This document shows, one piece after another, positions 3,999-59,414 of a stretch of 63,271 nucleotides of DNA (positions are counted from its first letter, which is position 1; each line of letters starts with the position of its first letter). The DNA is from a virus. Its lineage: Duplodnaviria; Caudoviricetes. The position numbers and the translations under genes were made by a program. The stretch is from positions 1 to 63,271 of the IMG/VR virus record IMGVR_UViG_3300023174_000169; one strand, written 5' to 3'. The notes beneath the pieces were generated by a model. The model saw only the letters and a list, made by a program, of their open reading frames with translations, searched no databases and had not been told where the DNA came from.

Positions 3999-4006
3999 TT
4001 TCACTT

Positions 4007-4014
4007 TATAAATA
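4007..4014 (+). promoter_or_regulatory. T4-type late promoter TATAAATA
   Basis: Exact consensus in a 23-nt intergenic gap, 7 nt before ATG 4022. Confidence 0.7.
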
Positions 4015-4021
4015 TCATACT

Positions 4022-4291: not shown

Positions 4292-4292
4292 C

Positions 4293-4516: not shown

Positions 4517-5143
4517 ATGAAAACATTAAAGCACATTGGTAGAATTAAAAATACAGGGGCGAAAGTTGTTGTTGCGTTTAGAACACTTCCTGGAGATTCA
4601 GCATCCGCATTGGTACTAGGTGCCAATACCTTAAATGATTCCTATCATGATGCTTTGATGACTCTTCTTGAGACTGATCAAGCACAAGATGCATTTGAGT
4701 TTGGTGAAATGCTACATATCCGTATGTTCCCAGATGGTCGTCCAATGCTTAAAGCATTACAACAAGATGGCCGTTTACAAAAGGTAGCAACAGATAACGT
4801 TATTATGACTCCGTCAACTAATAGCGAAATTCAATTGTCCGAATTAAATGTATTGATTGCAGAACAACGCAACTGTTCAATTGACGACTTGTGTAATTTT
4901 GTTGCAGGAGCTCCGGCAAAAACTACAACAAAAAAATCAGAACCAGCTAAAGTAGAAAGTGAAGCTGCTGCCCCATTAGTTGCTACAGAAGGCGCAGTTC
5001 TTAGCGATACTGACATTGCTAAAAATTATCGTAGTCAAGCAGATGCTATGTATAAAGAAGCAGCAAGACTACGTAAACAAGCAGACGAGTTAGATCCACC
5101 TAAGAAGAAAGCAACTAAAGCAGCTGAAACTGAAAGTGCCTAA
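4517..5143 (+). CDS. hypothetical protein (Lys/Ala-rich C-terminal part)
   Basis: 208-aa ORF with SD AAGGA upstream. Confidence 0.8.
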   Translation: MKTLKHIGRIKNTGAKVVVAFRTLPGDSASALVLGANTLNDSYHDALMTLLETDQAQDAFEFGEMLHIRMFPDGRPMLKALQQDGRLQKVATDNVIMTPSTNSEIQLSELNVLIAEQRNCSIDDLCNFVAGAPAKTTTKKSEPAKVESEAAAPLVATEGAVLSDTDIAKNYRSQADAMYKEAARLRKQADELDPPKKKATKAAETESA

Positions 5144-5441
5144 AAAATTGTTTAAGCCGCCAACACACATTGTAAAGAAGTGGCCGGAGGTGTTCGAAGA
5201 TTTATACATGAACACCATGCCGGTCGCCTATCTCAATTCTATTAAATTAGAATTTAAAAATGGGCGAGTTTGGGAGATACGTGTTCCCGACCTGTTGGCC
5301 AAAGCAGAAGCTGATGATGTAGCTGATAAACTTCTAGATATATTTCAAGAATACAATGAAGAAATTAGTAAACTAGATTTTGAAATTGATGTTGAAAAAT
5401 TGAAAGAAGATATTGCAAAAGAAACCAAAAAGTTTTTATAA
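5136..5441 (+). CDS. hypothetical acidic protein
   Basis: 101-aa ORF with a GTG start overlapping the upstream gene; last gene of the + block. Confidence 0.7.
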   Translation: MPKKLFKPPTHIVKKWPEVFEDLYMNTMPVAYLNSIKLEFKNGRVWEIRVPDLLAKAEADDVADKLLDIFQEYNEEISKLDFEIDVEKLKEDIAKETKKFL

Positions 5442-28536: not shown

Positions 28537-28544
28537 TATTTATT
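28537..28544 (-). promoter_or_regulatory. late promoter variant AATAAATA
   Basis: Overlaps the stop of the 4567-aa gene, 4 nt before ATG 28532. Confidence 0.45.
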
Positions 28545-40500: not shown

Positions 40501-42243
40501 TCCGTTGTAATAAAACATCTTGCCTTGATTGATTTTACCTCTACGAATTAAAACTGTTTCTCCAAGTATAGAGTCAGTGTCGTTGACTGCTTTCAATGTA
40601 ATCTGTCTGTTGGCATTTTGTGTTATAAATTCAACTTGATAAATTTTATTATTTGCCAAACTGTCTGTATCAGCTACTACTAAAATTCTTGCTCCGTCGA
40701 ATACTGGTTCACCGTCAATACTATAGCCCGAGCTTCCCTCAATTTTAGAAAATACATCAGTGGTGTATGTGTCGATGTAATCAACAGTTGTTTTAGCAAT
40801 TGCACCAAATTGAAACAATTTTAAATTTGAAACAAATTCAATAATTGGTCGTTTGGCTCTAGTTGTTTCCACTGCGCTAAAATCGCTGCCTGACAATTTA
40901 TGAGACTGTTCAAGTATTGATCGGTGGAACCAACGATTGTATCGGCTCCACGGATTTAAATCTTTACTGCTTTTTGCAATTGTAATATAATCTTTGTATG
41001 CAGGATATGCGGATGCATCATCAAACGGGATGGTATCAAATCCATCGTTGTCAAACAATACCTCTGGTACATCTGACACAATTTTAGGAACCACTAGATC
41101 GTCAAAATTTGTTAGAGTAATTTTATCGCCAACACCTTCAATTAGCCAAGAACCAGACGCATATTTTTCAGGAGTAACTGCTCCTTCAAATTTAACAACC
41201 ATGCTGTTACTAAATGCAATTCCATTTCCGCTGGTGTAATTGGCTTTTCCTAAAACTTCTTTGTCAATGTTTATAGATGTTGCGTTTTCAATATCAGCAA
41301 TAACAAATCGGCCAAATCTGTTTGGATCTGTATTACTTTGATAAAATAACACATCCGGAGCATCATAGGGTACTTCAAAGGTCAACGTGCCGTTTTCAAT
41401 GCCGTTATTTTTTACACCCTTTGTATAATCTAATATTGTCGACACGGTTGCAGCTTCAACAAACTCCCAATCTTGAGAATCAATATCAATGGTGCTGCCG
41501 TCTGCTGAAGACACAGGAACTTTTGCTCTCCATAATGCACTGTTGAATATTGCTAATTCCCCTGCTGCATAATCTCTGTCAGGATAAAAAGTTAAAGATC
41601 CTTTGTCGTAAGAAGTTTTTATTACCATGCCGCTGCCAGGAGCATTCATAATAAACTTATAAACTTGTCCTCGATACAACGTCAATGTAGGATTGTTAGA
41701 GTACCCGTCTGGTGAAAATATGTAGGTAGAGCCTACACCTAATTTAACTCTATATGTACTGGTAATACCTACAGCTTGTCCTAAAATTTTAATTGCTGGC
41801 GGTCCACTTGGAACCCAGTAATATTCTCTGTAATTTAAAAACTTGTCCCAGTCAATAGGAGGTTTCCACGAATAGTGCTGTTGATAGTCAGTTAGGTGAT
41901 CTCTTTCTTCTGTGCTACCAAAGAATTTTAAAATATTTTTTAAATCAAGAAAATCATAAAAGTCATGGGTAACACCGTTTTGTCGAAATAACACACCGGG
42001 TTCTAATTGATATCTGCTACGCAATGTTTCGTCGGTATCTAGATAAACATCAGATCCGTTGTATGTTTTGCCGTATCTACGACCAACATACCCAACTGTT
42101 TTTTCTAAAGTACCTGGCTGAATTAGAGGATCAAATACTCCCGACAAAAATTTATCGTTGGCTTCTGTTTGAAAAACTGTAGGTAAAAACTCTACACTTC
42201 TTCTAATTGGTAATTGACTTTTAGGATATACGTTATCTGCCAT
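28540..42243 (-). CDS. giant (4567 aa) baseplate wedge / virion structural protein (positional T4 gp7 analogue)
   Basis: Directly follows the gp6-like gene. Contains FG-GAP-like blades, CBM5/12-like aromatic repeats, 'G.GY...P.I.I.G.G.GATA' repeats and 'VY.NG' Ig-like repeats. Confidence 0.75.
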   Translation of the reverse strand: MADNVYPKSQLPIRRSVEFLPTVFQTEANDKFLSGVFDPLIQPGTLEKTVGYVGRRYGKTYNGSDVYLDTDETLRSRYQLEPGVLFRQNGVTHDFYDFLDLKNILKFFGSTEERDHLTDYQQHYSWKPPIDWDKFLNYREYYWVPSGPPAIKILGQAVGITSTYRVKLGVGSTYIFSPDGYSNNPTLTLYRGQVYKFIMNAPGSGMVIKTSYDKGSLTFYPDRDYAAGELAIFNSALWRAKVPVSSADGSTIDIDSQDWEFVEAATVSTILDYTKGVKNNGIENGTLTFEVPYDAPDVLFYQSNTDPNRFGRFVIADIENATSINIDKEVLGKANYTSGNGIAFSNSMVVKFEGAVTPEKYASGSWLIEGVGDKITLTNFDDLVVPKIVSDVPEVLFDNDGFDTIPFDDASAYPAYKDYITIAKSSKDLNPWSRYNRWFHRSILEQSHKLSGSDFSAVETTRAKRPIIEFVSNLKLFQFGAIAKTTVDYIDTYTTDVFSKIEGSSGYSIDGEPVFDGARILVVADTDSLANNKIYQVEFITQNANRQITLKAVNDTDSILGETVLIRRGKINQGKMFYYNGSDWKLGQEKTKVNQPPMFDSFDEQGISFGDIDKYPVSTFAGTKIVSYKIGSGVADTELGFPLSYLNLDNVGDIEFNFDWDTQTVTYEIDRESYSVDISTGFFKFNDTGEFGNNWVETNNTYLQPIIDSVIVENPTNTVSFTTLNWQDITDDMSVEIYFYLNGKKLTSAWEQVAGTFTFSHTFSAKDVLVIKIFSDLVPNTGYYEVPVGLEKNPLNEILTTFTFGQATDHVSTGIEFSTEFSGVFPGASNLRDLVGYQNHNKRFLKHSSLAPASIALLVDKKLNIVKSIKYAKKAYSEFKNNFLKLSGEFEYNDDVPSTVDNILSALSKTKTSISPFNDSDMVGTGAYSVIEYTVEDVGIKTFSLSQHFDLKTQSTRAVYVYINGRQLINSKDYQFNESFPFVQLNVSLVEGDEIRIVEYGSTAFNHIPPTPTKLGIYKKYLPYKFLDDTYLEPRWMIQGHDGSLVPAFEDYRDDILLELELRIYNNLKEPYTESLFDIDRVLGGYYKSGIFSKSQVDEIISTEFLTWISDTTVDYTSNRYFDSENSFTYTYSNMLDPTSTQVLPGWWRGVYQWFFDTTRPHMCPWEMLGFSEKPTWWESEYGPAPYTSNNLILWEDLANGVIRQGPTAGVDSRYQRPGLLECIPVDANGKLISPLDSNLARGFSLINNQGDFKFGDSSPAEYAWRITSEYPFAVVIALCLLRPFEFIGQTFDRATIKRNILNQLVSSTTNKFINVDNLVLSATGGSKVSGLASYIVDFLLSQSLPSTQLQTRLESIDVGLTYRLSGFVDPQQQKFVLDSRSPNSTSSNIFIPFENQEIFFNVSAPINSITYSGVIIEKLENGWKLEGYDKQFPYFPYFFAISSVGNPTISVGGISENYLQWSPNKFYGNGVIIEYSNRYYRSLASHDSGSTFDITRWKLLPGLPKIGSTDAFKKSSFDYQSVLKMSYGTVLGTVQEVVDFLIGYEQYLISQGFKFGRYDSENKVTQDWTTSAKEFMYWTQHNWAVGSLLTLSPSAEKLDIDFSVGVLDNLLDSFYDYQVYRGDGNPLVPNFLNIKRGFQNVTIETTNTNEGIYFFKGYLVLKEHVAIFSDRTVFNDVIYDKTTGYRQERIKSRGFRTVDWDGDYTSPGFLFDNVSIAPWQPFVDYKLGDIVSYKAYNWVSQINQTGAEFFNDSHWSKLDSLPEKRLVPNFDYRINQFEDYYNLDSDGLSTSQRDLGRHAIAYQTRDYLQNLAEDDVTQFQLYQGFIREKGTKNAAVKIFDKISRSTEDSIVLNEEWAFNVGEFGGKDQLKEIEFAITRNDIQINPQPILIVTSIPSSVILDQYLRIPASQFTKADTPFTVNIIPTTTDVELQTAGYVKFDQIDYAVATIDDISNIDITSVADNDHIWVTFYKHSWTVFRVNIKPLLHITAISKVIKPTSTVEITFDRRHTFAVDDVIGIVDVTNLTGFFKIVSVSTYTISVQVSKTAIDPVADLSTLIKIYGLTESRFARASALSPDSAALLSAGAKLWIDQDDTGKWQVLEKNNVFLPKEITDYGTTIPLNAGSSVVYVENLRQTITGLPTRNLVVALVEGVTGLGSKQVISPDLTLYPLSNSSFGASVAVSPDNRWLVIGTPFASNIPTRFKGALDAVTNYNVGDIVLYAGKLWQAVTDKHGDSTIDITNGDWVPATIIDYDPVLGTGQNLYKQGLISIYQWANQTWNIYSSFVSPRPATGELFGSSIAIGKSGTEYYMTVSAPGSLDNTGRVYIYKFNGTQWAQNEDSNYRGIFDAHKRYPTGSIVWYDNRFWQATVDFVGDGSTIGVDEDATGAWTKIDPVPTQPDLPTHLAVNTDGSSLIDGSTLTEGPTGSTTLAELVKQDDAFGSSMALSRDGSILVIGSPNSDGVYFENYKGMYSPYIEYTKDDVVKVAGVYRKLTSDFSIAEDPAGLPWISVGDSSFYATGKVYIYQKDQYSIYRLKQTITSQSIANFSDLDKSEPINVGDQFGFSVDIDATGLNIVISSPLADINLQNQGSVYFFSAASLAAPEWRLKQKIESYEEYSNILFGFSVSISPGADRVVVGAKNAPYKASTYFMDNTTFDRNSTTFSEDKGYTGQVYSYERLDGKYFLAEKLQADLQTDESFGYSIDVSTSVIAVGSPAYKELGVPVGTVRLFKKANDVNSLGIIAQQDAVTDIEKIKNIILVDTVKNIKIADVDFIDHARLKILGIADAEINYKTPYDPATYTIGSDEQVVDSTTAWFEKQVGKIWWNLGTAKWVDYEQGDISYRTGNWNKLAQGASIDVYEWVETILQPSEWSALADTATGLANGISGQPLHPNNDVYSVKQLYNSATQQLTKTLYYYWVKASTIIPTDMPNRSLSAAGIQSLISNPAGSGLPIIAVLDSNKLLAYNFNSAITSENASVNIEFYRDSAVTNPVHREYLLMSENVADSVPNETLEQKWIDSLIGFDQAGNTIPDPKLSDKEKYGLSFRPRQSMFKDKAKILKIIIDNINGFLTSIPAADLIDFEYLKLADPLPSEKLNEYDIAVDTLVDLEQIGTIRVRQAVFHANIVNGEIDTIDIIDAGFGYKKAPYIQIEGTGKGATASITIDLQGRVDSIKILSRGKKYSSAIVKIRAYSVLVRQDKNLNNFWGIYSWDQDRQLFYRSKSQGYDTTKYWEYIDWWAEGYSASSRIIFEIPALYLEPTLSTKEGDLIKVKEFGTGGWAVLLRTADGQGEILKNYLMIGRENGTIYAKDSLFNKITTPIGFDNVAYYDAALYDLEPSTELRNILKAVKQNINIYGNGAGWNNLFFTSIRYAFSEQENLYWAFKTSFVNAVHNVGPLEQRVTFKNDNLPAYQKYLEEIKPYKTTIREYTSRYTNLDNTESTAIDFDLPPIYSAREGRIVPIDGAYNLLDQYPWKFWAEELGYAVVDIKIADAGAEYTSVPQIRIEGNGTGATAKAYISNGKVSGIKVTNSGKGYTLSPRVYVIGGNGSSTQIAKAVAILGETKARMFNVGMKFDRLTKTGLYKNFKHTQTLVASGRTSVFELHFAPTIDKNKISITKNNQLVLNSEYDISLYRLDTDAYQQLRGKIIFAQAPLGADPTIGRSADVIEITYEKNDELLDAVNRIHKYYAPSEGMAGEDLGQLMTGVDFGGVQVQGNTFEVTGGWDALPWFTDSWDSVESNNDVYIQVDGSTTTVTLPTPPAPNERISVYLQRAGNTKAMRIDDPHFNIAGDSAMVINPNALMPTIIGDGSTVTYAIDEYFNTYPGDTLIFRAFDSDGSVVINDPNLLDTNITGGTLAQMSGAYITATGKTAEELLVDGGKFIDPNQVPAPEENVPGQVLDTLSIKVFQTTVSGAAPLQNYVLTSDGVTNSYDIGITVPDDNSILVYVDKVLYEKTTNYFINYVTNKVVFNTIPATGSLIEIIAVGRGGINLLDYQEFVADGQTHLFLTKSLYSATQSVFVSVDGIEVDTGFRNSTVVSEETGAAIAPDYAIIDFAMTPDANQVIKIIALGTSANTDSSGLSLIRVNKQTIKHDGSTRSYELDRFIDLDRNSATSSMIVLLNNKKLKGPDTYYRIYDGSNNEIIVGQDPKANVTSVDVKVYINGIAQPFVTAYVFDGTTNKVIVNTAFLELQDVIKVEILNDAEYSVANNNIIIDATVALVVNDTLDITWFGEYPTFDIVSDVYTGGKVNYQLARQPLDLSYVWVYQNGTRLVSGRDYTVIVPRNIVYLNVPSTLNDRVEIVQFGNQIYKDPRAFEIHKDMLNITHYTRFAITKAVLTKDLRYYDTEIEVSDASNLAEPIRNRNIPGTVTIDNEKIEYMVKEGNVLKQLRRGCLGTAISELARAGTKVVSSGKEDTIPYIDTQEKESFVSDGSTLLIGPLPYVPVLSSRNDSFARVTIPNEYGPCDQLEIFVGGRRLLKDHLRVYDETLGASSPTADTVIEAEFTVDGTTPYVRLTKPVKEGLQVLIIRKVGRVWYDRAETTASKGITLLNNETAIAKFIDQKASELPE

Positions 42244-42245
42244 TT

Positions 42246-45200
42246 TTACATGCTCGTAGATGTTATAATTGAAGTTGGATTAGCTCCAATTTCTGATGCG
42301 TTGATGCTTGAAACTATTACAATATCATCAACTGTTGCCCCGCTAACAAAAATTTCGTCTGCTCTACTTTGTATTTCAAACAAACTACCAAACGATTGGC
42401 TGGCCTGTCTAGGAACAATTACCATATTGGAAATATCAGGTGCAGTTGCATTTATTACATAGGTTATCATTTCTGAAAGATAAAACTTATCACCAAAATC
42501 CCAATTGCTTACATCAAAGAATTCGTTGATTGCAGAAATAACCCTAACTTTTAAATCATTTGTGTTTATTGTTTTATTTGAATTTTTAACTATTTTAAAT
42601 TGTGCTTGAAGTTTTTCGTCTGCTTTTGAACCAAACAAAATTTTGTATGATACTGGATGATAAATGATATCATCACTAATTGATTTTATTAAATCTAGAT
42701 TTTGTCCAAACTTGATCAATAGACTATCTGAATTAGGAGGCTCAGGCAATGTAGTTGTTATTCCGCTTAGATAATTTCTAAATGTGGTATCGTATGATCT
42801 TGTTAGCAAGTACACATCCATGATATTACTTACACTTGGATCAATTCTGCGATCAACGTTAGCATTGTGAATGTATTGGAATTTTAATCCTGCACGGCCA
42901 ATATTAGCTCTATAACTACTTTCAATATTCAATGTGTTTGTTGTTCTATCAACACTTTTTACAACGTCCTCTGCACTATCATAAAAATATAATAGCTGTC
43001 CGTTTGCATAATCACCGATGACTGCTAGACTTTCTTTTTGTAAAGAAATGATAGTGTCATTGCTATTATCGATATACTCGTAGACTAGTGTACCTGTTAT
43101 ATCAACAGTTTGTTTAAAGAACAAAAATTTAAGATCTAGATCTTCGCCAACAATTTTTAAAAACTCATCTGGATCGTCAATTACACCGTCGTCATTAGAA
43201 TCAGCAAAGGCAATTTTAATTTCTTTTGTGCTTTGATACCCGTCTTCATATTTTATACTATCACTTACTTCAAATATAACATCTTGTTTTAAAGAGTCTA
43301 TCAATCCGCTATTTGTGTTGATACCTAACACTTTAATTTGATCTTTAATTACAGTATTGTTTAAGCTGTCATAGATTTTTTGATTTGAATCAAAATAAAA
43401 TCTATTTTTTTGTAAGCTGCCGAATACATATTCCATTGAACGGATACGAACAATATATCTATCAGGTTCTTTAACAAATGCAATGATCCACGAACTATCA
43501 ATGTTGGTACTGGTCAAATCTCCAGTCTTACCTAAACTAAAATCGCTGAGTAAGTCTAAATTTGCAGCAGTAATAATTTTCCAAGCTGCTTCAGTAACAT
43601 CATAACGAAGACCAAAATTTAAATTTGAAAATGCTAGGTTGACCATTTCTGCTTCTAATGCACTAGGCAATCTTGAAATAAATTTAGGCACGATTCTACT
43701 GGCAATTGCTCCCGATGGAACTGTTACATTTAAACTTACAGGGCCTTTACCAGATGTTAGAATTCCTCGTCCAGCGTTAGTTCCATCGCCTACTACTTTG
43801 ACAACTTTTGCCCAAATATAAGATACTTGAGTAGGGTCTGATAAATTTGCTGTTACTTTCTTTCCTTTCTTAAATGCATATCCCGTAGGTGCTATAAATT
43901 TAATTAAAGAATCTGGTTCTAGATATTTTAAAGTATTGTTGGTATAGACACCAGTCTTTAACAATGTAGTACCATCTGATTTTTCAAAATATCCTGTAGT
44001 TTCGTTGGTAACAGATGTGGTTTGATTCCAAACTGAAGTATTATCAATAAAGGAAATTTTTGTATATTTTGTTAGATAAAAATTATAAACATCGGTTCCT
44101 GAAATAATAGGATCAATGCTGTTTCTAATAAAATTATAAATGTCAATCTTGTTAGTGAATTTAAAATTTAGTGCAGTTTCAATTTGATTCTTATAAATCA
44201 GCCCATCGTCGGCAAATACGTCAACACTGGAATATTTTCCAGATGCGTCAATAATATCAAAGTTTCTAGAAATTCCGCTACTGGTTCTATTGATAGCTTT
44301 AACTTTTAAAATGTCTTGACTGCTAGCCAAAGGAGCAAGATTGTAGTCCTCTCCAGTGACCATTCTGTTTTGTGTGTAATATACCGCAGGAGCATTTGCT
44401 CGGATGCTGGTTATTGATTCAGTTGGTGCTGAAGTTGAAACTGTATATTTTAAACTCATACTGATAGACAATGTATGAGAAGCTCCTTGACTATTCACAT
44501 ACGGAATAGAGATACTGATTCCTCGCAAATCACTTGGAGCAATAGCATAACTTAGACCATTACTTACTCTATAATAAACTCTAAATGAGCCTTGTGGTAG
44601 ATTGCCGTATACGCCATCGGAAAACTGTAAATCAACTTTATCGTTTTCTCGTGTAATTACAGAATAGATGTTTTTTACGCTGTTCACTAAACTGTTATAA
44701 GCAATGTTATTTCCTGTCAATGCAGGAACTTGAGACCATAATGATTGCTGACTACCTGCGGCGCTTAAAGCGTACAACCATATGTCGTCATTGTTGATGC
44801 CTTCAGCATCAATCGATACTTTTTCATTTACTGTAGGAACAGCAATTGTAAAATCTGCTAGCTCTAAGCTGCCTTGTTTGAATAATAAAAAGAAACCGTT
44901 GTTGGCACTAGCTGGACCTTTTCCGTCATTCTTGTAAACAAATCCCAATTGATTTGCTGGCATAGGATCTTCTTCGTAGATATAATCCTTGCCTTTGAAC
45001 GAAGTACTTACTAATTCAAATGCCATTTTTCTGCCGGCCACTGTCTTTGAGAATGTGAAGATTGGAACATCTCTGTTGGCTGTTCTGAATCTATATTGCT
45101 CCGTTGGTATTCCGCTGATAGAGGCAGCGCCTTGGCTGCGGCCAAATTCAGTGTTGTCACTCATTGCGGCATTTAAAACTGTTAGGAACTGTTCGCTCCA

Positions 45201-45653
45201 ATTTGAATTTGTTGGATCGTTCCAAATAATAATTTGTTGCGCTAGATTTTTACCATTACTGTCCACAAGATTTTCTGTGGTACGCACAGTGTCAAATTTT
45301 AAAAGACCTTCTGAAGAGATATTTCTTTTTGCATTGTAGCTCAGCATACGTGCTAGACGTAGGACACTTTCTTTTCTTTCTGCTAATTCAATGAAATTTT
45401 CTCGGCTGGCTAAATCAATGCGGAAACTTAAACTTTGACCAAGGAACGCAATGGCGTCGATGAGGGCCATATACTCAGAACTTTCAATGTAATCATTGAA
45501 ATCTTCTGGATAATTTTCTCTAATATAATCAATCATCACACGACGAAGATTTTCAAAATCGTATGATTTAAAATCTGCGTTCTTGAATGTCTGGTAGATT
45601 CTAGTCCAGTCTTCGTTTAGTATTAGATTGTTTTGTCTTGTAGTGGCTGTCAT
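42246..45653 (-). CDS. gp6: baseplate wedge subunit, T4 gp6-like (long form)
   Basis: 'DFENLR..MIDY.....PEDFNDY.ESS...LID..A.......F......ENF..LA....SV..LA..LSY' and 'ESITSIRANAP..Y.TQNRMVT.EDY' are gp6/baseplate-J motifs. Confidence 0.85.
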   Translation of the reverse strand: MTATTRQNNLILNEDWTRIYQTFKNADFKSYDFENLRRVMIDYIRENYPEDFNDYIESSEYMALIDAIAFLGQSLSFRIDLASRENFIELAERKESVLRLARMLSYNAKRNISSEGLLKFDTVRTTENLVDSNGKNLAQQIIIWNDPTNSNWSEQFLTVLNAAMSDNTEFGRSQGAASISGIPTEQYRFRTANRDVPIFTFSKTVAGRKMAFELVSTSFKGKDYIYEEDPMPANQLGFVYKNDGKGPASANNGFFLLFKQGSLELADFTIAVPTVNEKVSIDAEGINNDDIWLYALSAAGSQQSLWSQVPALTGNNIAYNSLVNSVKNIYSVITRENDKVDLQFSDGVYGNLPQGSFRVYYRVSNGLSYAIAPSDLRGISISIPYVNSQGASHTLSISMSLKYTVSTSAPTESITSIRANAPAVYYTQNRMVTGEDYNLAPLASSQDILKVKAINRTSSGISRNFDIIDASGKYSSVDVFADDGLIYKNQIETALNFKFTNKIDIYNFIRNSIDPIISGTDVYNFYLTKYTKISFIDNTSVWNQTTSVTNETTGYFEKSDGTTLLKTGVYTNNTLKYLEPDSLIKFIAPTGYAFKKGKKVTANLSDPTQVSYIWAKVVKVVGDGTNAGRGILTSGKGPVSLNVTVPSGAIASRIVPKFISRLPSALEAEMVNLAFSNLNFGLRYDVTEAAWKIITAANLDLLSDFSLGKTGDLTSTNIDSSWIIAFVKEPDRYIVRIRSMEYVFGSLQKNRFYFDSNQKIYDSLNNTVIKDQIKVLGINTNSGLIDSLKQDVIFEVSDSIKYEDGYQSTKEIKIAFADSNDDGVIDDPDEFLKIVGEDLDLKFLFFKQTVDITGTLVYEYIDNSNDTIISLQKESLAVIGDYANGQLLYFYDSAEDVVKSVDRTTNTLNIESSYRANIGRAGLKFQYIHNANVDRRIDPSVSNIMDVYLLTRSYDTTFRNYLSGITTTLPEPPNSDSLLIKFGQNLDLIKSISDDIIYHPVSYKILFGSKADEKLQAQFKIVKNSNKTINTNDLKVRVISAINEFFDVSNWDFGDKFYLSEMITYVINATAPDISNMVIVPRQASQSFGSLFEIQSRADEIFVSGATVDDIVIVSSINASEIGANPTSIITSTSM

Positions 45654-51922: not shown

Positions 51923-52783
51923 ATGACTTTAATACCAACAGTACCTAAAATAAAGTATCTAACAAACAAAGATTTATTAAAAGAAATACACAAAAGCAAG
52001 AATACATATTGTTCGTACACACAGCCCGAATACGGAGATTATGATTTAATTTTACCTAGTGTGGCTAAAATCAACATCCGCACAGTGGCCGAAGCTAAAC
52101 GCAATCGTGCTATCAGACTAGCTAAATTAAATCACGAGGCCGCTGTACTTGCAGGTGGTAAAAAACTACCAGCAAAAGAATTTGAAATAGATTATAAAAA
52201 AATTCCTAAAAACGATGTAGTGTTCCGCATCATGACTTTTGAACACATTCCGCTTGCTCCTGGTAGAAAAAAGACTCTTAAAAATGTTGGTGACAGTCAC
52301 GAAAAAGTAAACTTTCCTCCTTTCCAGCATTGGAAATATGATGACAATGATAATTTAATTTTAGTGGGTAAGAGTCACTGGAAGGGAGATTTACAAACAG
52401 GACACTTTGATAAAGAATACGGACAAATGACCAACAATCTTGCTCGTATGTTTTTAAAATTGTGCGAAAGATATGCTACTAGGAGTAACGTTCGTGGATA
52501 TACTTACAATGATGAAATGCGCGGCCAAGCAATTCTTCAGCTTACCCAAATTGGCCTACAGTTTGATGAGAGCAAGTCTGATAATCCTTTTGCTTATTAT
52601 ACCGCTGCTGTTACTAACTCATTTGTTAGAATCATCAATATCGAAAAGCGCAACCAAAATATTCGAGACGATATACTTGAAATGAATGGAATGAATCCAA
52701 GTTGGACTAGACAAAATAGCGGAACAGGAAATGCAGTTGCTCCGGTTACTTCAGTTGGAAGTGTTGACGGGGATTCTGATTGA
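51923..52783 (+). CDS. gp55: late-transcription sigma factor, T4 gp55-like
   Basis: 'YLTNKDLL.EI' and 'N.RGYTYNDEM...A........FD..KS.NPFAY.T....NSF.R.I..EK.....RD'. Immediately upstream of gp47-gp46, as in T4-like genomes. Confidence 0.88.
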   Translation: MTLIPTVPKIKYLTNKDLLKEIHKSKNTYCSYTQPEYGDYDLILPSVAKINIRTVAEAKRNRAIRLAKLNHEAAVLAGGKKLPAKEFEIDYKKIPKNDVVFRIMTFEHIPLAPGRKKTLKNVGDSHEKVNFPPFQHWKYDDNDNLILVGKSHWKGDLQTGHFDKEYGQMTNNLARMFLKLCERYATRSNVRGYTYNDEMRGQAILQLTQIGLQFDESKSDNPFAYYTAAVTNSFVRIINIEKRNQNIRDDILEMNGMNPSWTRQNSGTGNAVAPVTSVGSVDGDSD

Positions 52784-52825: not shown

Positions 52826-53836
52826 ATGTCATTATTTAAAAAAGTAGCGTGTTTTACCGATATACATTTCGGATTAAAATCTGGTAGCAGAACTCACAAT
52901 CAAGATTGTGAAGACTTTGTGTCTTGGTTCTGTGAAACTGCCAAGGCAGAAGGTTGTGAAACTGCAATCTTTCTAGGTGACTGGCATCATAATCGTAGTA
53001 CCACTGACGTGAGTACTATGAACTATACTGTTTCCAATTTAGAGAAACTGAGTTCCTCGTTTGAAAAAGTATATTTCATTCTAGGTAATCACGATCTATT
53101 CTACAAAGATAAACGTGAAATCAACTCTGTTGAATTCATGCGATTGTTTCCTAATATTGTTCCAATCAAAGATACACTAACCGAAGGCGATGTAACCATC
53201 ATGCCTTGGCTAGTGGGCGACGAATGGAAGGCTATTCCTAAAATGAAGAGCCGTTATATCTTTGGACACCTAGAACTTCCGTTGTTTTACATGAACGCTA
53301 TGGTACAGATGCCGGACCATGGTCAGTTACAAGCTGATCACTTTGGCAATCAAGAGTATGTGTTCAGTGGACACTTCCATAAACGTCAAAGCAAGGGCAA
53401 TGTAACTTACATTGGTAATGCTTTCCCGCACAACTATGCAGATGCAGGAGACGATGATCGTGGAATGATGATCTTAGAGTGGGGCGGCAAGCCAGAATAC
53501 AAAACTTGGCCTGGTCAACCTATCTATCGTACATTTAAACTCAGTCAAATTGTTGAAGCTCCTGAAAAACTATTACATGAAAAAATGCATGCCAGGGTAA
53601 CAATTGATTTACCAATTAGTTTTGAAGAAGCAAACTTTATTCGTGAAACATTTATTCCGCAATTTGATCTGCGAGAACTGATGTTGATTCCAGAGAAGGT
53701 TGAAGTTGATTCAACTTCAACTCCAATCGATATCAATTTTGAATCCGTTGATACTATTGTGATGAATCAAATCAATGCTATTGAAAGCGACACATATAAT
53801 CGTGGACTGCTTTTGGAGATCTACAAAGACCTATGA
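52826..53836 (+). CDS. gp47: recombination endonuclease subunit, T4 gp47 / Mre11 / SbcD-like
   Basis: Metallophosphoesterase motifs 'DIHFG', 'GDWHH', 'GNHD', 'GHLE' and 'SGHFH'. Confidence 0.93.
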   Translation: MSLFKKVACFTDIHFGLKSGSRTHNQDCEDFVSWFCETAKAEGCETAIFLGDWHHNRSTTDVSTMNYTVSNLEKLSSSFEKVYFILGNHDLFYKDKREINSVEFMRLFPNIVPIKDTLTEGDVTIMPWLVGDEWKAIPKMKSRYIFGHLELPLFYMNAMVQMPDHGQLQADHFGNQEYVFSGHFHKRQSKGNVTYIGNAFPHNYADAGDDDRGMMILEWGGKPEYKTWPGQPIYRTFKLSQIVEAPEKLLHEKMHARVTIDLPISFEEANFIRETFIPQFDLRELMLIPEKVEVDSTSTPIDINFESVDTIVMNQINAIESDTYNRGLLLEIYKDL

Positions 53837-55611
53837 TAAAGATTAAAAATTTAACTGTTAGAAATTTCATGAGTGTGGGCAATCAGACTCAAGCAATTGA
53901 CTTTGATCGAGGTCAACTGACGTTAGTACTAGGTGAGAACTTAGATCTAGGCGGTGACGATAGCGGGGCACGTAACGGTACTGGTAAAACTACCATTATC
54001 AACGGACTTAGCTATGCTATCTATGGGCAAGCACTTACAAACATCAAACGTGATAATTTGATCAACAAGATCAACAGCAAAGGCATGCTGTGTACTGTGA
54101 CATTTGAAAAGAATGGGCAAGAATATCATATTGAACGTGGACGTAAGCCTAACCTATTGAAGTTTAGTATCAACGGACAAGAACAAGATCTAGAAGATAC
54201 TGACGAAAGCCAAGGCGACAGCAGAGAAACACAAAAAGCAATTGAAGAATTGTTTGGTATGAGCCACGATATGTTCAAACATATCCTAGCATTAAACACT
54301 TATACTGAGCCGTTCCTTTCTATGAAGGCATCAGACCAACGTGCAGTTATAGAACAGTTGCTGGGTATAACGTTACTGAGTGAAAAAGCAGAAAAACTTA
54401 AAGAACAAATTAAAATTTCTAAAGATGCTATTGTTTTTGAAAACACTAGAATTGAAACTATCAAAGTAAGCAACGAAAGAATACAACAAAGTATCGATTC
54501 TCTAGAGCGTAAACAACGCATGTGGGACGAAACTAAAGAAAAAAATATAGAAAATATTTTAAAAAGTATTGATCAACTAAGCCATCTTGATGCAGAAGCA
54601 GAAATTGCTGCTCACAGAGCGTTGACTGAATACAATACCAAAAAGAAAGATATTGCAGATCTAACTAAAGCCATAAGTCGTGCAGAAGCAGACATGGGTC
54701 GAGAAGAAAAGACTTCAGACAAACTAAAGAAAGAAATTGCAGACCTAGAAGATCACAAGTGTTATGCTTGCGGTCAAGAACTGCACGACAGTAAACATGA
54801 AGAAGTGTTAGCAGGAAAAAAGAAAGCACTACAAGAATCATCATTGCAGTATTTGTCAACAAACACACAATGGATGGAACTAACTGATGCTGTTAAAGAA
54901 TTAGGTGAACTAGGCACTATGCCTAATGTATTTTATGATACATTAGAACAGGCATTGAATCACAAGAACACTTTAACCAGCTTGGAAAAAGATCTAGAAA
55001 TTAAAGATGCAGAAACTAACCCCTATCAAGAACAAATTGACGAATTAAAGAATACTGCTGTACAGGAAATTGACTGGACTAAAGTCAATGATCTTACATC
55101 TGTGAAAGATCATCAGGAATTCTTGCACAAATTGTTGACTAACAAAGACAGTTTTGTACGCAAACGTATTATTGATCAAAACTTAGCGTTCTTAAATCAA
55201 CGTTTGACCTACTATCTTGATAAGATCGGTCTGCCGCACATTGTAGAATTCCAGAATGATCTAAGTGTAATCATTACACAGCTAGGTCAAGACTTGGACT
55301 TTGACAATTTAAGTCGTGGCGAACGCAATAGATTGATCCTAAGTCTAAGTTGGGCCTTCCGTGACGTGTGGGAAAACTTGTATCATCCTATCAACTTGTT
55401 GTTTATTGATGAATTAGTAGATAGTGGCATGGATGCAAGCGGTGTTGAATCTAGTATTGCTGTGTTAAAACGAATGACTAGAGAACGCAACAAGAATGTA
55501 TTCCTAATTTCGCACAGAGACGATCTAACAAGTCGAGTAAATCATGTGTTAAAAGTTATTAAAGAAAATGGTTTCACTAGTTACAGCAATGATGTGGAGA
55601 TTGTTGCGTGA
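53833..55611 (+). CDS. gp46: recombination ATPase subunit, T4 gp46 / Rad50 / SbcC-like
   Basis: Walker A 'NGTGKT', coiled coils with zinc hook 'CYAC', signature 'LSRGE', Walker B 'LLFIDE' and H-loop 'ISH'. Confidence 0.94.
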   Translation: MIKIKNLTVRNFMSVGNQTQAIDFDRGQLTLVLGENLDLGGDDSGARNGTGKTTIINGLSYAIYGQALTNIKRDNLINKINSKGMLCTVTFEKNGQEYHIERGRKPNLLKFSINGQEQDLEDTDESQGDSRETQKAIEELFGMSHDMFKHILALNTYTEPFLSMKASDQRAVIEQLLGITLLSEKAEKLKEQIKISKDAIVFENTRIETIKVSNERIQQSIDSLERKQRMWDETKEKNIENILKSIDQLSHLDAEAEIAAHRALTEYNTKKKDIADLTKAISRAEADMGREEKTSDKLKKEIADLEDHKCYACGQELHDSKHEEVLAGKKKALQESSLQYLSTNTQWMELTDAVKELGELGTMPNVFYDTLEQALNHKNTLTSLEKDLEIKDAETNPYQEQIDELKNTAVQEIDWTKVNDLTSVKDHQEFLHKLLTNKDSFVRKRIIDQNLAFLNQRLTYYLDKIGLPHIVEFQNDLSVIITQLGQDLDFDNLSRGERNRLILSLSWAFRDVWENLYHPINLLFIDELVDSGMDASGVESSIAVLKRMTRERNKNVFLISHRDDLTSRVNHVLKVIKENGFTSYSNDVEIVA

Positions 55612-55838
55612 CCACTGAAGCTCACGATCGCATGATCAAAGCGTTCCAAGAATATTTTAAATGGCAGGAACGCTTTGAATATAAAGGCTCAGATGAAGCA
55701 GGCATAAAGGCACGATATTGGCTATCAGAAATACGCAATGAGGCAAGTACTAGGCGTGTAGAAATACAAGAAAAACGAGTAAATCGTAAAGAATCCAGAA
55801 AAGGCAAATTAGGCAGACCCCCCAAGATAACTAGTTGA
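55608..55838 (+). CDS. small basic protein, possibly histone-H1-like (Hc1-type helix pair) with a C-terminal AT-hook-like motif
   Basis: 'FEYKG...AGIKAR..L.EI....R.EIQEK' and terminal 'KGKLGRPPK'; GTGA overlap with the gp46 stop. Confidence 0.55.
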   Translation: MTTEAHDRMIKAFQEYFKWQERFEYKGSDEAGIKARYWLSEIRNEASTRRVEIQEKRVNRKESRKGKLGRPPKITS

Positions 55839-56266
55839 TGTCATGGTTTTATCAAGATCAACTAGTTACTGAGTTACCAGAAGATTGTGTTGGATTTGTT
55901 TATCTTATTACTAACACAACAACTGGGCGCAAATACATAGGCAAAAAACTTGCAAAGTTCGCAAAAACATCATACAAAGTAGTAAAACTCAAAAACGGCA
56001 CTAAAAAGAAGAAGAAAATTCGTAGCAAAATTGACTCAGATTGGCAAACATACTATGGCTCAAATACAGAACTTAGCAAAGACGTTGTAGAACTAGGCGC
56101 AGAAAACTTCCGAAGAGAAATACTTTACTATTGCAAATCCAAATCAGAATGCAGCTATATTGAGGCTCGCGAACAATTTAATCACAAAGTTTTAGAATCA
56201 AAAGACTATTATAACGGACAGATTTCTGTGCGTGTACATGGTTCACATATACTCAAGGCTCAATAA
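55838..56266 (+). CDS. small stand-alone GIY-YIG family nuclease (Seg-like)
   Basis: 'GFVYLITN...GRKYIGKK', 'Y.GS', 'F.REIL', 'E' and 'YYN' motifs of the GIY-YIG fold. TGATG coupling to the upstream gene. No C-terminal DNA-binding repeats are visible. Confidence 0.82.
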   Translation: MSWFYQDQLVTELPEDCVGFVYLITNTTTGRKYIGKKLAKFAKTSYKVVKLKNGTKKKKKIRSKIDSDWQTYYGSNTELSKDVVELGAENFRREILYYCKSKSECSYIEAREQFNHKVLESKDYYNGQISVRVHGSHILKAQ

Positions 56267-56756
56267 TTTAGGCAATTTAACTGCCAAATAAGCCCGCACC
56301 GGCGTTGTTACGGTGCCCTTAAAGCTGGATCTCGGATCACAGTCAATGGAATTCCCTACTTGGTAGAGGGGTTGTAAATCAGTATCCTTTACAGGACCAC
56401 GATGGAATATGCCTTTAATCCGTTTGATTTATAAGAAAAAGTTTAAAATAGGCTAAAAGAGGGAGAAACACCCACGGCTTTGTATGTGTTAGCGTATGTA
56501 CAAAGGCCCGCCGTCGTATAAAGACGCAGCTAAAGGTACCGGACGACCGCCTTGGTAATGCTGTAACGCTAATGTGTACTGTGCAACTCGCATAATGTTA
56601 CATATTTTTGCCCGCAAGGGCAAAGTGTGACTGAACAATCTGCATAATATTTAAAATGCTTCGCATTTAATAATACTTCACAACTTAAACATTATCTCTA
56701 AGAAAGAAAAATGCGTTGAGCGGAAGCGAAAACGCAAGCGAGCATTGCTCGCTTTT
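56267..56756 (+). ncRNA. candidate large structured non-coding RNA (unidentified class); origin-type ssDNA structure is the alternative
   Basis: The only long ORF-free gap in the window (522 nt), with about a dozen consecutive hand-identified helices, repeated G.U pairs on the + strand, a 3-way junction (56372-56434) and GNRA loops (GCAA 56614-56617, GGAA 56722-56725). Confidence 0.55.
56736..56756 (+). terminator. possible intrinsic terminator closing the structured region
   Basis: AAGCGAGC-ATT-GCTCGCTT followed by only a short T run. Confidence 0.4.
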
Positions 56757-56760
56757 AAAT

Positions 56761-56768
56761 AATAAATA
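56761..56768 (+). promoter_or_regulatory. late promoter variant AATAAATA
   Basis: 20 nt upstream of ATG 56789. Confidence 0.5.
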
Positions 56769-56788
56769 ACATATACTTCGGATCAAGA

Positions 56789-58252
56789 ATGAAATTAGAT
56801 CATATTCTCAAAGAGCAACAGCTAATAGCAAACAAAAAGATTCTAGCAGAATCGTGTGATGGGCTGACTGCTGAACAAAGACGCATTGTAGAAGGTATCT
56901 ACAATGAATTATCACCTCTTGTAGAAGCCAGTATCAATCCTGCAACAATACAAAAGATATTTGGCAACATTGAGCAAGCGGTAACAGCAGGTGGCGGTAA
57001 TCGCACCATGTTAGGCAAAGGAGTAGATGTTGCCAAACAAGTAGATGCTATGGTCAACAAGGTTGGCGTATGGCTACAGAATACAACTCCAGTTAAAGCA
57101 TTTGATCAAAAGTTTGAACAACTAAAGAACAAGATCAATACCAAGTTCCCAGACAGCAAGATCCTGGATGCCATTTCTGAAATGGGCATGTGGGCCAAAG
57201 AGAATCCTGGAAAGACAGCAGCAATCATTGGTGTACTAACCACACTGGCTGCTCTAGCTGGCGGCCCCGTGGGCGGTGCAATTGCTGGACAAGTGCTACG
57301 TGGCAGTTTAGAATTGCTCAAAGGCGAAAAACTTTCCACAGCCATTGGCAAAGGTATTAAAACAGCAGCCTACGGTTGGCTAACAGGCAAAGCAGTAGAG
57401 CTTGTTGGAGACTTACTTAGCAAGCCAATTGAAATTGTTGCCAGCAAAATAAATCCCAATGTGGTTACAGCAAATTACACTCGAACCATTCAAGAAATCA
57501 ATGGCGAGTTTGGTGATCGCTTTGGCACATTTAAAACAGGATCTCTGTTTGGTCGTCCTGAAGATGTACAAGATGCCAAAACATTCTTTGATGACGCAGT
57601 GGGCGCATGGAAAGCAGGTGACTACAATCAAGCTAGACTAAACTTTGAAGCAATGGATCAAGCCATTGAAAAGATGAGCAGCCTAGAATATCTCACACAA
57701 ATTGGTGCTGAACAGGCCAAAGCAGCCAAGTGGTCAGCAGCCGCAGAGAATGTACAGGCATTTGCACAAGGCATGGCCAAGGCCGCGCAGGGCGCAGTCA
57801 CCGCAGCAGGTGCAATGGAAAAGAAACCCAAGCAAGAAAGTTTTGAAAATAAAACAAGACCTTTAAGTGAAGGGCAGGTTTATCTAGTATTCAACAGAGT
57901 TGAACAGTTGCAAGAAGGTCCAATGGATGCTATCAAGGGTGCAGTGGGCAAGGCAGCAGGATGGGTAAACACCAAAGCAGGTAATCTTACCACACGGGTT
58001 ACCGCAGACAAGTTAAACAGTGCTTGGCAAAAAGCTGGCAGTCCTACGGACAGCACAGAATTGGCAAACTTTTTAAAGGCACAAGGCATTGATGATGCAG
58101 TCACATCACAGGTATTCAAAGCATTGAAGATACCCGCAGGTGGCAGCGCAACATCGTTATACGCACAGGTCAAGGCAGACCTTGCTAAATTAGATAGCAA
58201 AGGCAAAAAACGTCTGGCTGCTTACTTACAAAAACAATTAGGAACCGCTTGA
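56789..58252 (+). CDS. hypothetical protein, probable internal/ejected virion protein with a glycine-zipper hydrophobic segment
   Basis: 487 aa, helical. Hydrophobic stretch 'AAIIGVLTTLAALAGGPVGGAIAGQVL' and several (L/I)-x-E sites near the N-terminus and before the C-terminal module. Confidence 0.7.
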   Translation: MKLDHILKEQQLIANKKILAESCDGLTAEQRRIVEGIYNELSPLVEASINPATIQKIFGNIEQAVTAGGGNRTMLGKGVDVAKQVDAMVNKVGVWLQNTTPVKAFDQKFEQLKNKINTKFPDSKILDAISEMGMWAKENPGKTAAIIGVLTTLAALAGGPVGGAIAGQVLRGSLELLKGEKLSTAIGKGIKTAAYGWLTGKAVELVGDLLSKPIEIVASKINPNVVTANYTRTIQEINGEFGDRFGTFKTGSLFGRPEDVQDAKTFFDDAVGAWKAGDYNQARLNFEAMDQAIEKMSSLEYLTQIGAEQAKAAKWSAAAENVQAFAQGMAKAAQGAVTAAGAMEKKPKQESFENKTRPLSEGQVYLVFNRVEQLQEGPMDAIKGAVGKAAGWVNTKAGNLTTRVTADKLNSAWQKAGSPTDSTELANFLKAQGIDDAVTSQVFKALKIPAGGSATSLYAQVKADLAKLDSKGKKRLAAYLQKQLGTA

Positions 58253-58253
58253 A

Positions 58254-59414
58254 ATGAGAATACAAGACATATTGGTTGAAAGCCAACAACTAGACGAAGG
58301 CCCGTTAGCCAACAAGATTGGCACAGCAATTGGTAAAGGTGTAGGCACACTGGCCAAAGGTGTAGGCGCAGTAGCAGGCGGTGTAGCAGGACTAGGATCA
58401 GCAGTCAAGAAAGGCTTTGCTGCCGGTAAACAAACTGTCGCAGGTGCAGGCGACGATGAAGATCCAGCAGCAGCGCCAGCAGCAGGTGGCGCAGCAGCAC
58501 CATCAGCACCAGGCAGATTAGCCACAGCATTTAAAGCAGGTAATCAATATGCCAAAGGTGCAATGGCAGCAGGTCAAAAGCCAAGCATGGCAGCGGCAGC
58601 AGATGCAGGAGTTGATTCTGCTCCTGCAGCACCGGCAAGAAAGGCAGCGCCGGCAGCAGGTGGAAGTGCTCCGGCCGCTACGCCGGCAGCAGGTGGTGCA
58701 GCACCAGCAGGAGCACCAACAGCTCCGGGAGCAGCTCCTAGCGGAACAATGTATGCTCAGGTAAAAGCTAACATTGACAAGCTAGACAAAAAAGGCAAGC
58801 AAAGAATTTTACAGGCATTACAAAAAGAAGTTGGAGCAGCACCAGCAGCTAAACCAGCAGCAGGTGCACCGGCAGCACCAGGCGCAGCGCCAGCTGCACA
58901 ACCAAACACAATGGCCAATGCTCCTGTTAGCAAAACAAATACAGCAAAGCCAGGTAATCCTAATGCAACAGCAGCGGCCAAACCAGCAGCAGGTGCAAAT
59001 CCAGGCGCGGCAGCATTTGGGCAAATGGCTAAAGATCTAACACAGAAGCCAGAACCACAACAACAAAAAGTACCTCCTAAGAAAGTGGTAGCTAAACCTG
59101 CGGCAGCACCTGCGGCTGAGCCAGCAGCTGAGCCAGCGGCAGCGCCAAGTGGTGAAAAGACTATTGCAAATCCTGTAGCCACAGTTGGCACTAAACGTGC
59201 TTCTAATATTGGCCAGCAGACATTTGACACTCAGACTGGTAAAGCATTACCAGGACAGTCTATCAATGCTATTCGTAAGAAAGCAGAATACGGTACAGGT
59301 GCATTAGGTGCAGCAAGAAAGAGAATTAAAGCAGGCGCAGCAGCGCCCGCTGAAAGCAAAACTAATACTAGACCAGCGTTAGCAGAAGGTTTTAGTTTGT
59401 TTAGAAAGAAGTAA
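58254..59414 (+). CDS. Ala/Pro/Gly-rich low-complexity protein, probable internal virion protein
   Basis: 386 aa, starts 'MRIQDILVESQQLDEGP', with long PAAG/APAA tracts. Confidence 0.7.
   Translation: MRIQDILVESQQLDEGPLANKIGTAIGKGVGTLAKGVGAVAGGVAGLGSAVKKGFAAGKQTVAGAGDDEDPAAAPAAGGAAAPSAPGRLATAFKAGNQYAKGAMAAGQKPSMAAAADAGVDSAPAAPARKAAPAAGGSAPAATPAAGGAAPAGAPTAPGAAPSGTMYAQVKANIDKLDKKGKQRILQALQKEVGAAPAAKPAAGAPAAPGAAPAAQPNTMANAPVSKTNTAKPGNPNATAAAKPAAGANPGAAAFGQMAKDLTQKPEPQQQKVPPKKVVAKPAAAPAAEPAAEPAAAPSGEKTIANPVATVGTKRASNIGQQTFDTQTGKALPGQSINAIRKKAEYGTGALGAARKRIKAGAAAPAESKTNTRPALAEGFSLFRKK

Follow-up and report, generated by a model that had tools for sequence, protein, structure and literature searches.

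Between the stop codon of a gene for a GIY-YIG nuclease (55838-56266, plus strand) and the start of a 487-aa gene (56789-58252, plus strand), the phage sequence analysed here contains a gap of 522 nt (56267-56788) that is free of open reading frames (ORFs). The sequence is a 63,271-nt viral contig (IMG/VR record IMGVR_UViG_3300023174_000169; Duplodnaviria, Caudoviricetes), the whole of which we refer to as the window; CheckV rates it as 18% complete, so that it forms part of a phage of approximately 350 kb, and its near-complete relatives measure 345-355 kb. Gene order around the gap is T4-like: a gp55-type late sigma factor (51923-52783, phrog_12791), an Mre11-like gp47 (52826-53836, Pfam), a Rad50-like gp46 (53833-55611, Pfam) and a 76-aa gene (55608-55838), the stop of which overlaps the start of the nuclease gene, all precede the nuclease gene on the plus strand. 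Judging from its relatives, the gap encodes a structured plus-strand RNA of approximately 467 nt (about 56291-56757), which is the full-length form of a catalogued orphan family, Polynucleobacter-1 (Rfam RF01718), and not a new class. That this is a real RNA of the Polynucleobacter-1 family, and one that is not tied to the nuclease beside it, is a conclusion in which we place high confidence.

A large plus-strand non-coding RNA had been proposed at this locus from the letters alone (hereafter the sequence-only reading), and comparison with relatives upholds that proposal. The gap is as ORF-free as described, containing no ORF of at least 60 aa and only two on the minus strand, of 49 and 33 aa, the longer of which persists as an open frame in just 26 of 102 relatives, its length being out of frame in 78 of the 102. 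Full-extent matches to the gap, at 70-85% identity, were obtained by blastn in more than 100 related viral contigs, although the product of the gene 3' of it is mostly no more than 30-59% identical there, and the length of the gap falls between 440 and 600 nt in 102 of 107 distinct copies; a blastn search of the locus against cultured phages gave zero matches. Single-sequence folding energy did not discriminate the gap from its shuffles (z = -1.9 for the plus strand and -2.0 for the minus strand). The structure was instead derived from an L-INS-i alignment of 102 distinct copies, using RNAalifold and then a strict screen for stacked pairs with changes on both sides, which replaced a looser covariation screen that had yielded 2400 pairs, mostly reflecting one-sided variation. 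The resulting 95 pairs were counted on a separate MAFFT alignment of 102 distinct sequences (A1), where 83.1% of cells form standard pairs, against 69.6% in shuffles, and double-sided changes occupy 1269 cells, against 416. Covariation reaches 0.380 compared with 0.148 in shuffles, a value attained by 0 of 500 shuffles, and falls to 0.064-0.097 when partners are slid by one to three columns. Moreover, 70 well-aligned pairs include 510 G.U or U.G cells compared with 91 A.C or C.A cells, and this excess indicates that the molecule under selection is the plus-strand RNA, which bears out the strand argument that had been made from wobble pairs in the single sequence.

The 5' portion of the RNA, domain A (56291-56434, plus strand, 144 nt), is the catalogued Polynucleobacter-1 motif, matching RF01718 over model positions 1-141 of 141 with 91.7 bits (E 2.6e-18; cut-off 37). 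The sequence-only reading could not match the element by eye to tRNA, tmRNA, RNase P or group I/II intron cores, and had named a confident match to an Rfam family as evidence that would count against its proposal; exactly such a match occupies the first 144 nt. No Rfam family other than RF01718 scores above its cut-off in the window or reaches E<1 in the gap, and the approximately 320 nt that follow the match give chance-level Rfam matches alone at E up to 10. ARAGORN detected 0 tRNA or tmRNA genes in the window, where the Rfam tRNA and tmRNA models likewise found no match. Two of the helices drawn by hand fall within domain A. The first, GCACCG/CGGTGC (56296-300/56312-316), is 96.5% paired and changes on both sides at five of its five pairs. 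The second, proposed as a 10-bp stem enclosing two hairpins (56372-56434), survives in its inner part: six pairs (56376-56381/56425-56430) are essentially always formed, five of them with changes on both sides, while the outermost pair that was modelled, 56375-56431, is formed in only 37 of 102 sequences. The 3' hairpin of the domain (56401-406/56419-424) covaries and is 99.8% paired; hairpins 2 and 3 are 38% and 60% paired in the MAFFT alignment, which probably misaligns that stretch.

The most widely conserved stretch of the gap lies 3' of the RF01718 match, and domains A and B form one unit, as RF01718 was present closely 5' of domain B in 20 of 20 contigs in which blastn had seen only that domain. 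The core of domain B (56447-56570, plus strand) was identified de novo from stacked covarying pairs. It consists of a short hairpin (56461-463/56471-473), a long hairpin of 12 bp (56476-487/56496-508; 93% paired, with 12 of 12 pairs changing on both sides), which had been anticipated as a wobble-rich stem of about 13 bp at 56476-56508, and two nested stems (56527-530/56560-563 and 56533-536/56550-553; 97% and 98% paired), which correspond to the predicted CAGC/GCTG helix enclosing AAGG/CCTT. Two pseudoknots tie these elements together. In PK1, the loop of the long hairpin (56492-495) pairs with 56566-569, is 100% paired and changes on both sides at four of four pairs. In PK2, 56513-517 pairs with the loop at 56543-547 (99% and 92% paired), and its pair 56515-56545 is CG in 54 sequences and UA in 48; what had been drawn as a local CGTC/GACG helix is better read as a strand of this pseudoknot. 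Domain B also contains many invariant unpaired bases. Six relatives (L047, L065, L025, L077, L055 and L121) carry an insertion of 12-60 nt between the positions equivalent to 56556 and 56557 (A1 columns 424-490), and in several relatives the nested-stem loop insertion is made up of short tandem repeats (TATAGTCAAC-like), resembling an expansion segment at a tolerated site.

Four further hairpins follow on the plus strand. The central hairpin (56606-56625), capped by GCAA, had been read as a long stem (56597-56631), of which a core of 7-8 bp stands: with sequences folded individually, a stem of at least 5 bp forms in 101 of 107, in 29 stem variants that include the compensatory series UUUGCCC/GGGCAAA, UUAGCCC/GGGCUAA and UUAACCC/GGGUUAA. 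A small hairpin, AAUGC UUC GCAUU (56655-56667), has moderate support (83.5% paired, four of five pairs changing on both sides), and a 3' hairpin (56713-56735), interrupted by an internal loop and capped by a GGAA tetraloop, is defined by covarying pairs, its core, UGAGCG-AAGCGAAA, being common to phage and Polynucleobacter copies. The last is a covarying hairpin with a U tract, a putative terminator (56737-743/56747-753; whole element 56737-56757), in which seven pairs are 98-100% standard with three to five pair types each in the L-INS-i alignment. The U tract comprises seven U in the consensus of relatives, and four U followed by AAAU in the window. A pattern scanner reported the hairpin at 56737-56753 on the minus strand only.

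On either side of the central hairpin lies a repeat unit of approximately 25 nt, R1 (56572-56597) and R2 (56625-56649), each ending in what we term a twin word, which is predicted to be single-stranded in R1: AACTC followed by GCATAAT in R1 (56585-56596) and AATCT followed by GCATAAT in R2 (56637-56648). Depending on the copy, R1 and R2 lie 47-59 nt apart. Three positions within the word are variable, and these are identical between R1 and R2 in 107 of 107 distinct phage copies, which carry six haplotypes. On a tree of the 102 aligned sequences built without those columns, the haplotype switches at least 24 times, always in both words, a count that a quick tree may inflate and for which five changes are the floor. 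Judging from this pattern of substitution, the words are under strong selection to remain identical. Pairing within the RNA does not offer a partner, since no RNA column is complementary to the variable dinucleotide (best Watson-Crick fit 0.67-0.69), and the best fit for the third position (0.89) is unstacked and falls in a column outside the folded RNA, near a late-promoter box. Identity to the sister word is 1.00, compared with 0.72, 0.67 and 0.91 for the next best column at the three positions. No column of the GIY-YIG, p76 or gp46 proteins tracks the word haplotype beyond background. The CUC of R1 and the UCU of R2 could both pair with GGG through wobble, which would fit an RNA or DNA partner.

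Copies of the RNA are also found in bacterial chromosomes. A scan of bacterial genomes with a 14-base motif yielded no genuine copy, only 120 chance matches in G+C-rich genomes, and a scan of species-representative genomes with a longer pattern returned 48 places, eight with real similarity to domain B and five with RF01718. RF01718 scores above its cut-off in 17 of 151 Polynucleobacter genomes, many of them complete chromosomes, and occurs twice in three genomes; it was found in 4 of 151 genomes of an order-wide sample, counting the centre genome, and in 1 of 151, the centre genome only, of a class-wide sample around a Methylomonas assembly. The Polynucleobacter copies are approximately 480 nt long; in them domain A is followed by a diverged domain B that keeps the ACCGCC core of the phage RNA, then by twin words, by the UGAGCG-AAGCGAAA hairpin and by a terminator. 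They share the layout of the phage copies with other words, flanked as GAACTC-x5-AAAG and GAATCT-x5-AAAG. Both words could be read in 21 bacterial copies, and in 17 of these one word appears twice.

We read the island context of the bacterial copies from ten 12-kb regions. In each of them a divergent gene of 145-171 aa flanks the RNA on its 5' side, and it encodes DUF6641, a domain on which we found no literature, in the three that were scanned. Downstream of the terminator there is at most one gene, variable in kind and in strand, and next to it, in nine of ten regions, a gene of 188-198 aa, which in both of the two scanned encodes a tyrosine recombinase with little beyond its catalytic domain; ordinary metabolic genes follow this recombinase-sized gene. 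The same order is seen in a Pseudomonadota assembly (L422), where a Fic/DOC gene occupies the cargo position; downstream of the RNA in a Methylomonas contig (L434) come a 495-aa integrase, a tRNA gene and htpG. The slot between the terminator and the small recombinase (L481-L486, L422) has the appearance of a cargo slot, its genes matching no Pfam family except in L422. In one Polynucleobacter chromosome the RNA occurs twice, in a shared orientation and with 18 kb between the copies (G115:C1:401229-401366 and 419563-419698; L474 and L462), each with its own DUF6641 and small-recombinase-sized neighbours, the twin words being AGCGA in one and AGAGA in the other. No GIY-YIG match was found in the bacterial islands examined. 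Conversely, the tyrosine recombinase family PF00589 was absent from five related phage records, three of them 98-100% complete, and DUF6641 was not detected in the window, in a search whose controls were silent too. Consequently, no single protein accompanies the RNA everywhere.

This distribution indicates that the RNA forms an independent module of mobile DNA, carried both by giant T4-like freshwater phages and by bacterial islands. We propose that domain A and the doubly pseudoknotted domain B would form a rigid scaffold, displaying two identical unpaired words of approximately 13 nt, one on each side of a hairpin, and that these would be bound by an external reader possessing two equivalent sites. 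Such a reader would most simply be two copies of one complementary nucleic-acid word, or otherwise a dimeric protein; base-pairing to two complementary word copies would be the simplest way for it to have tracked at least 24 switches. In the phage, the RNA would probably be made as the tail of an early recombination operon (sigma factor, gp47, gp46, 76-aa gene and nuclease), ending at a terminator of its own, ahead of the late promoter that serves the downstream gene, and the GIY-YIG enzyme would be a neighbouring, independently conserved phage nuclease and not a dedicated partner. The display mechanism is offered tentatively, as something short of an even bet in its own right. For the statement as a whole, that this is the full-length Polynucleobacter-1 RNA, a mobile module that is independent of the nuclease and displays its words to a reader, we estimate a probability of roughly 0.6.

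Several observations weigh against this interpretation. Four helices are weak in A1, at 32-71% paired (domain A hairpins 2 and 3, the central hairpin and the terminator); we would put this down to misplacement of gaps by MAFFT, an explanation that is backed otherwise for the central hairpin and the terminator only. In 4 of the 21 readable bacterial copies the two words differ by one or two bases. No exact complement of a word was found beyond the RNA gene in three near-complete related phage genomes or in five Polynucleobacter genomes, nor any complement within 3 kb or elsewhere in the window, which has no further copy of the word either, although these searches required 13-14 matching bases and would miss short seeds. 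Finally, the RNA does keep company with the nuclease: in a sample picked by the domain B motif alone, and so unbiased as to flanks (103 contigs with at least 800 nt upstream), a GIY-YIG gene lies upstream of the RNA in 99, in 96 of them at 156-327 nt, and there is no recognisable promoter, nor any ATAAATA box, between the nuclease stop and 56291. So tight an adjacency within the clade leaves some probability of a functional link.

The sequence-only reading inferred a candidate nuclease-RNA system, the RNA being perhaps bound by the GIY-YIG enzyme, by analogy with HEARO/omegaRNA. In such a system the RNA would supply the target recognition of the enzyme, as omegaRNA does for IscB, the twin words acting as guides. 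The nuclease is indeed as it was described there. It comprises 142 aa from the ATG at 55838 (the ORF listing starts at a TTG at 55835), carries a basic insert, and matches Pfam PF19835 (SegE_GIY-YIG; E 1e-32, 113.4 bits against a cut-off of 25, residues 4-130 of 143) as a catalytic domain only, with neither a second domain nor a C-terminal DNA-binding region by Pfam. GFVY at 20-23 and KYIG at 33-36 (GFVY...KYIGKK), R94, E110 and N127 are invariant in nine relatives, and we take these motifs and residues to be catalytic by analogy with I-TevI; no solved structure is related to the protein by sequence or profile. The basic insert is typical of the family, and the phage clade to which the window belongs has six additional residues in it. 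The protein belongs to phrog_447 (E 4.5e-38), the database label of which, 'NAD synthetase', is a mislabel. As in the Seg-type GIY-YIG homing endonucleases of T4, a PF19835 catalytic domain is encoded between conserved T4-like genes; however, the window nuclease differs from these in having no C-terminal DNA-binding region and a distribution that is not sporadic. Its gene is fixed and syntenic across hundreds of contigs, with 71-86% identity and the same position in 80 of the 80 best contigs. We considered a free-standing homing endonuclease of the Seg type and rejected it, given the missing DNA-binding module and the fixed syntenic position.

An enzyme without a DNA-binding domain of its own, an RNA directly 3' of it on the same strand in 96 of 103 motif-picked contigs, and variable single-stranded words with no internal pairing partner are all features that a nuclease-RNA system would have, as is the presence of another nuclease fold in the same slot in two contigs (L299 and L308), where a PD-(D/E)XK nuclease (PF24608; RusA-like in PHROGs) stands before the RNA (L299 4421-4942 in oriented coordinates, L308:3963-4484), followed in L299 by an RNase H gene (4972-5391, oriented). 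One nuclease fold has been replaced by another at the same spot. Co-transcription of nuclease and RNA is plausible, as the two share a strand and follow one another immediately, and no promoter could be recognised in the interval. However, all neighbouring genes are syntenic in the phage clade, and adjacency alone therefore carries little weight.

Moreover, the nuclease and the RNA each occur without the other. The nuclease family is present in 499 cultured phage records, mostly of cyanophages (tblastn), and in three that were examined, Methylophilales phage Melnitz (the best cultured relative of the nuclease, 50% identity), S-SRM01 and phiN3, the gene is followed by gaps of 148, 87 and 28 nt with zero matches to RF01718 or by blastn. 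Among 12 close relatives of the nuclease scanned with Rfam, 11 of which had no blastn match to domain B, RF01718 was found in four and not in eight. Of the latter, three have twin words approximately 300 nt downstream, and so retain a diverged RNA; three are followed by unexplained gaps measuring 0.9-1.4 kb; one sequence stops with the gene; and in L022 the nuclease runs straight into the next ORF. In the other direction, the bacterial islands examined carry the RNA with no GIY-YIG nuclease beside it, and of the four exceptions in the motif-picked sample, L330 has an amidoligase-like gene upstream of the RNA, L316 an unassigned 175-aa ORF, and L299 and L308 the PD-(D/E)XK gene; RF01718 is retained in all three exceptions that were scanned (L299, L308 and L330). 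L330 also encodes a permuted tmRNA (3911-4304; RF04321, 92.5 bits) and a tRNA gene (5169-5240) approximately 4 kb 5' of the RNA.

The linkage that had been proposed thus holds in the phage clade, at 99 of 103 contigs, and breaks down in the islands and in L299, L308 and L330. The word haplotype is not predicted by any nuclease column, for which conditional entropy is at best 1.63 of 2.29 bits, worse than the 1.15 of 2.19 of the gp46 control, and no exactly complementary target was found in the three near-complete phage genomes. A partnership of RNA and nuclease is therefore not supported, since each occurs without the other and no nuclease residue tracks the words; the neighbouring enzyme probably lies outside the RNA system, and a system in which the RNA guides it we consider unlikely.

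An alternative view is that the RNA is a cis-regulatory leader or 5' untranslated region of the downstream gene, perhaps a riboswitch, which was the tentative call of the catalogue in which the family was first listed. The table of Weinberg et al. 2010 (PMC2864571) gives the motif as a likely RNA, marks it 'y' for cis-regulatory and '?' for switch, and assigns it to Burkholderiales and to fresh water and estuary, with which the habitat and taxa found here, Burkholderiales and fresh-water sequence, agree. The RNA does lie upstream of a same-strand gene in the window, and the many invariant unpaired bases of domain B are aptamer-like. Against this, a covarying putative terminator hairpin and a late-promoter box separate RNA and gene. 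The box, ATAAATA (56762-56768, plus strand), is of the T4 late type and lies 20 nt upstream of the 487-aa gene; the window holds 10 copies, 8 of which sit 7-32 nt 5' of a same-strand gene, and these positions, together with the gp55 homologue, point to a late promoter after the RNA terminator. (A 9-mer, TAATAAATA, tried as a late-promoter probe, has a single copy in the window and was uninformative.) With a terminator and a late promoter at its 3' end, the RNA would end a transcription unit and not lead one. Furthermore, the downstream gene is not conserved, a homologue of the 487-aa gene being found downstream in only 17 of 80 motif-picked contigs, and in bacteria the next genes vary and are on the opposite strand in several cases, among them L483, L485, L422 and L434, with the upstream gene divergent. 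A cis-regulatory role thus seems to us improbable.

The proposed display of words to a reader admits a more ambitious variant, in which the RNA would be a programmable two-site adaptor: its two 13-nt words, held by the knotted scaffold, would seize two copies of one complementary sequence, be they two DNA or RNA sites or both ends of a single element, and draw them together, and an enzyme without a DNA-binding domain (GIY-YIG or PD-(D/E)XK in phages, the tyrosine recombinase in islands) would act on them. This would be compatible with words that are unpaired and change quickly and always together, and with an identical core of 7 nt, which is what the two partner sites of a tyrosine recombinase must share. 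Both the drawing together of two sites and the action of such an enzyme upon them are, in our estimation, very unlikely; if true, the adaptor would represent a new class of RNA-guided DNA manipulation in lytic jumbo phages and genomic islands.

A function at the level of DNA, either as a replication origin, which the sequence-only reading had kept as its main alternative, or with the twin words as iterons or operators and the folds incidental, we judge to be highly improbable. Concerted direct repeats are typical of iterons and their initiator, and the neighbours belong to replication and recombination (gp46 and gp47, with RNase H in L299). However, pairing is kept through G.U and not A.C (510 vs 91), the signature of one-strand RNA, and pseudoknots and long-range pairs covary, which tells against an origin in the folded part; in addition, there are only two repeats, and their spacing of 47-59 nt means that helical phasing is not kept. 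As for hidden small proteins, with two mini-frames ending at the twin words and the words themselves coding, the window frames do read as seven codons plus UAA and six codons plus UAA, and all six phage haplotypes as a sense codon (NNA) followed by UAA or UGA, but this does not hold in Polynucleobacter, where the words (AGCGAAA, ATCAAAA and others) contain no stop and are preceded by earlier in-frame stops, identity is held at the nucleotide and not the synonymous level, and the longest minus-strand frame is not conserved, leaving a negligible chance that this reading is correct.

Among known RNAs, the closest comparison is Polynucleobacter-1 itself. Positions 56291-56434 of the window fit all 141 positions of the catalogued model, which is nevertheless the 5' third only of an RNA of approximately 470 nt; in every copy examined the stretch covered by the model continues 3' into domain B with its pair of pseudoknots, after which come twin words, a GNRA hairpin and a terminator. 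Our search of the literature on Polynucleobacter-1 and RF01718 found nothing beyond Weinberg et al. 2010 and two genome reports, and a search on structured non-coding RNAs of jumbo phages showed nothing on this RNA among the papers listed; the architecture of the complete RNA, its pseudoknots, its twin words and its occurrence in both phages and bacteria appear to be new with respect to that literature. What Rfam has listed since 2010 is a 141-nt fragment, doubtfully labelled as cis-regulatory, and the whole form of the RNA changes which experiments are sensible, with the twin words providing a direct experimental handle on a binding partner. That it is shared between uncultured giant freshwater phages and chromosomal islands of an abundant lake bacterium, Polynucleobacter, suggests that it has a role in traffic from mobile elements to hosts and back.

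Structured RNAs of more than 400 nt with several pseudoknots are rare among bacteria and phages, and those that have been solved are ribozymes, ribonucleoprotein scaffolds or cages. GOLLD, ROOL, HEARO and OLE are large orphan RNAs of bacteria and phages, which share with the present RNA a length above 400 nt, multiple pseudoknots or long-range pairs, and carriage by phages or mobile elements. However, apart from RF01718 no Rfam family reaches E<1 in the gap, and HEARO has no match there at E up to 10; to our knowledge, two identical words that change in concert have not been described in any of the four. The omegaRNA (HEARO) of IscB and the bridge RNA of IS110 are likewise structured RNAs beside a DNA enzyme without a DNA-binding domain, and have short variable single-stranded segments, the two loops of the bridge RNA sharing a core. 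In contrast, the present family is accompanied by varying enzymes (GIY-YIG, PD-(D/E)XK, tyrosine recombinase) or by none, and RNA and enzyme can be separated; a search of three phage and five host genomes revealed no complementary target for the words, which are identical to each other and do not correspond to two different partners.

The remaining features of the window concern the surrounding phage genome. The eight ATAAATA boxes that precede genes, at 3278, 4008, 18047, 21760, 45672, 51868, 56762 and 60560, provide a late-promoter map. The 487-aa gene downstream of the RNA is fast-evolving, its product being 30-59% identical in most relatives and 71% at best, and belongs to no Pfam family; the protein includes a glycine-zipper-like hydrophobic stretch. 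It is followed by a 386-aa protein (58254-59414, plus strand) that is largely of Ala/Pro/Gly-rich low complexity and has no Pfam or PHROG match. On the minus strand, an ORF of 4567 aa (28540-42243) is very large even for a jumbo phage, and is adjoined by an ORF of 1135 aa (42246-45653, minus strand).

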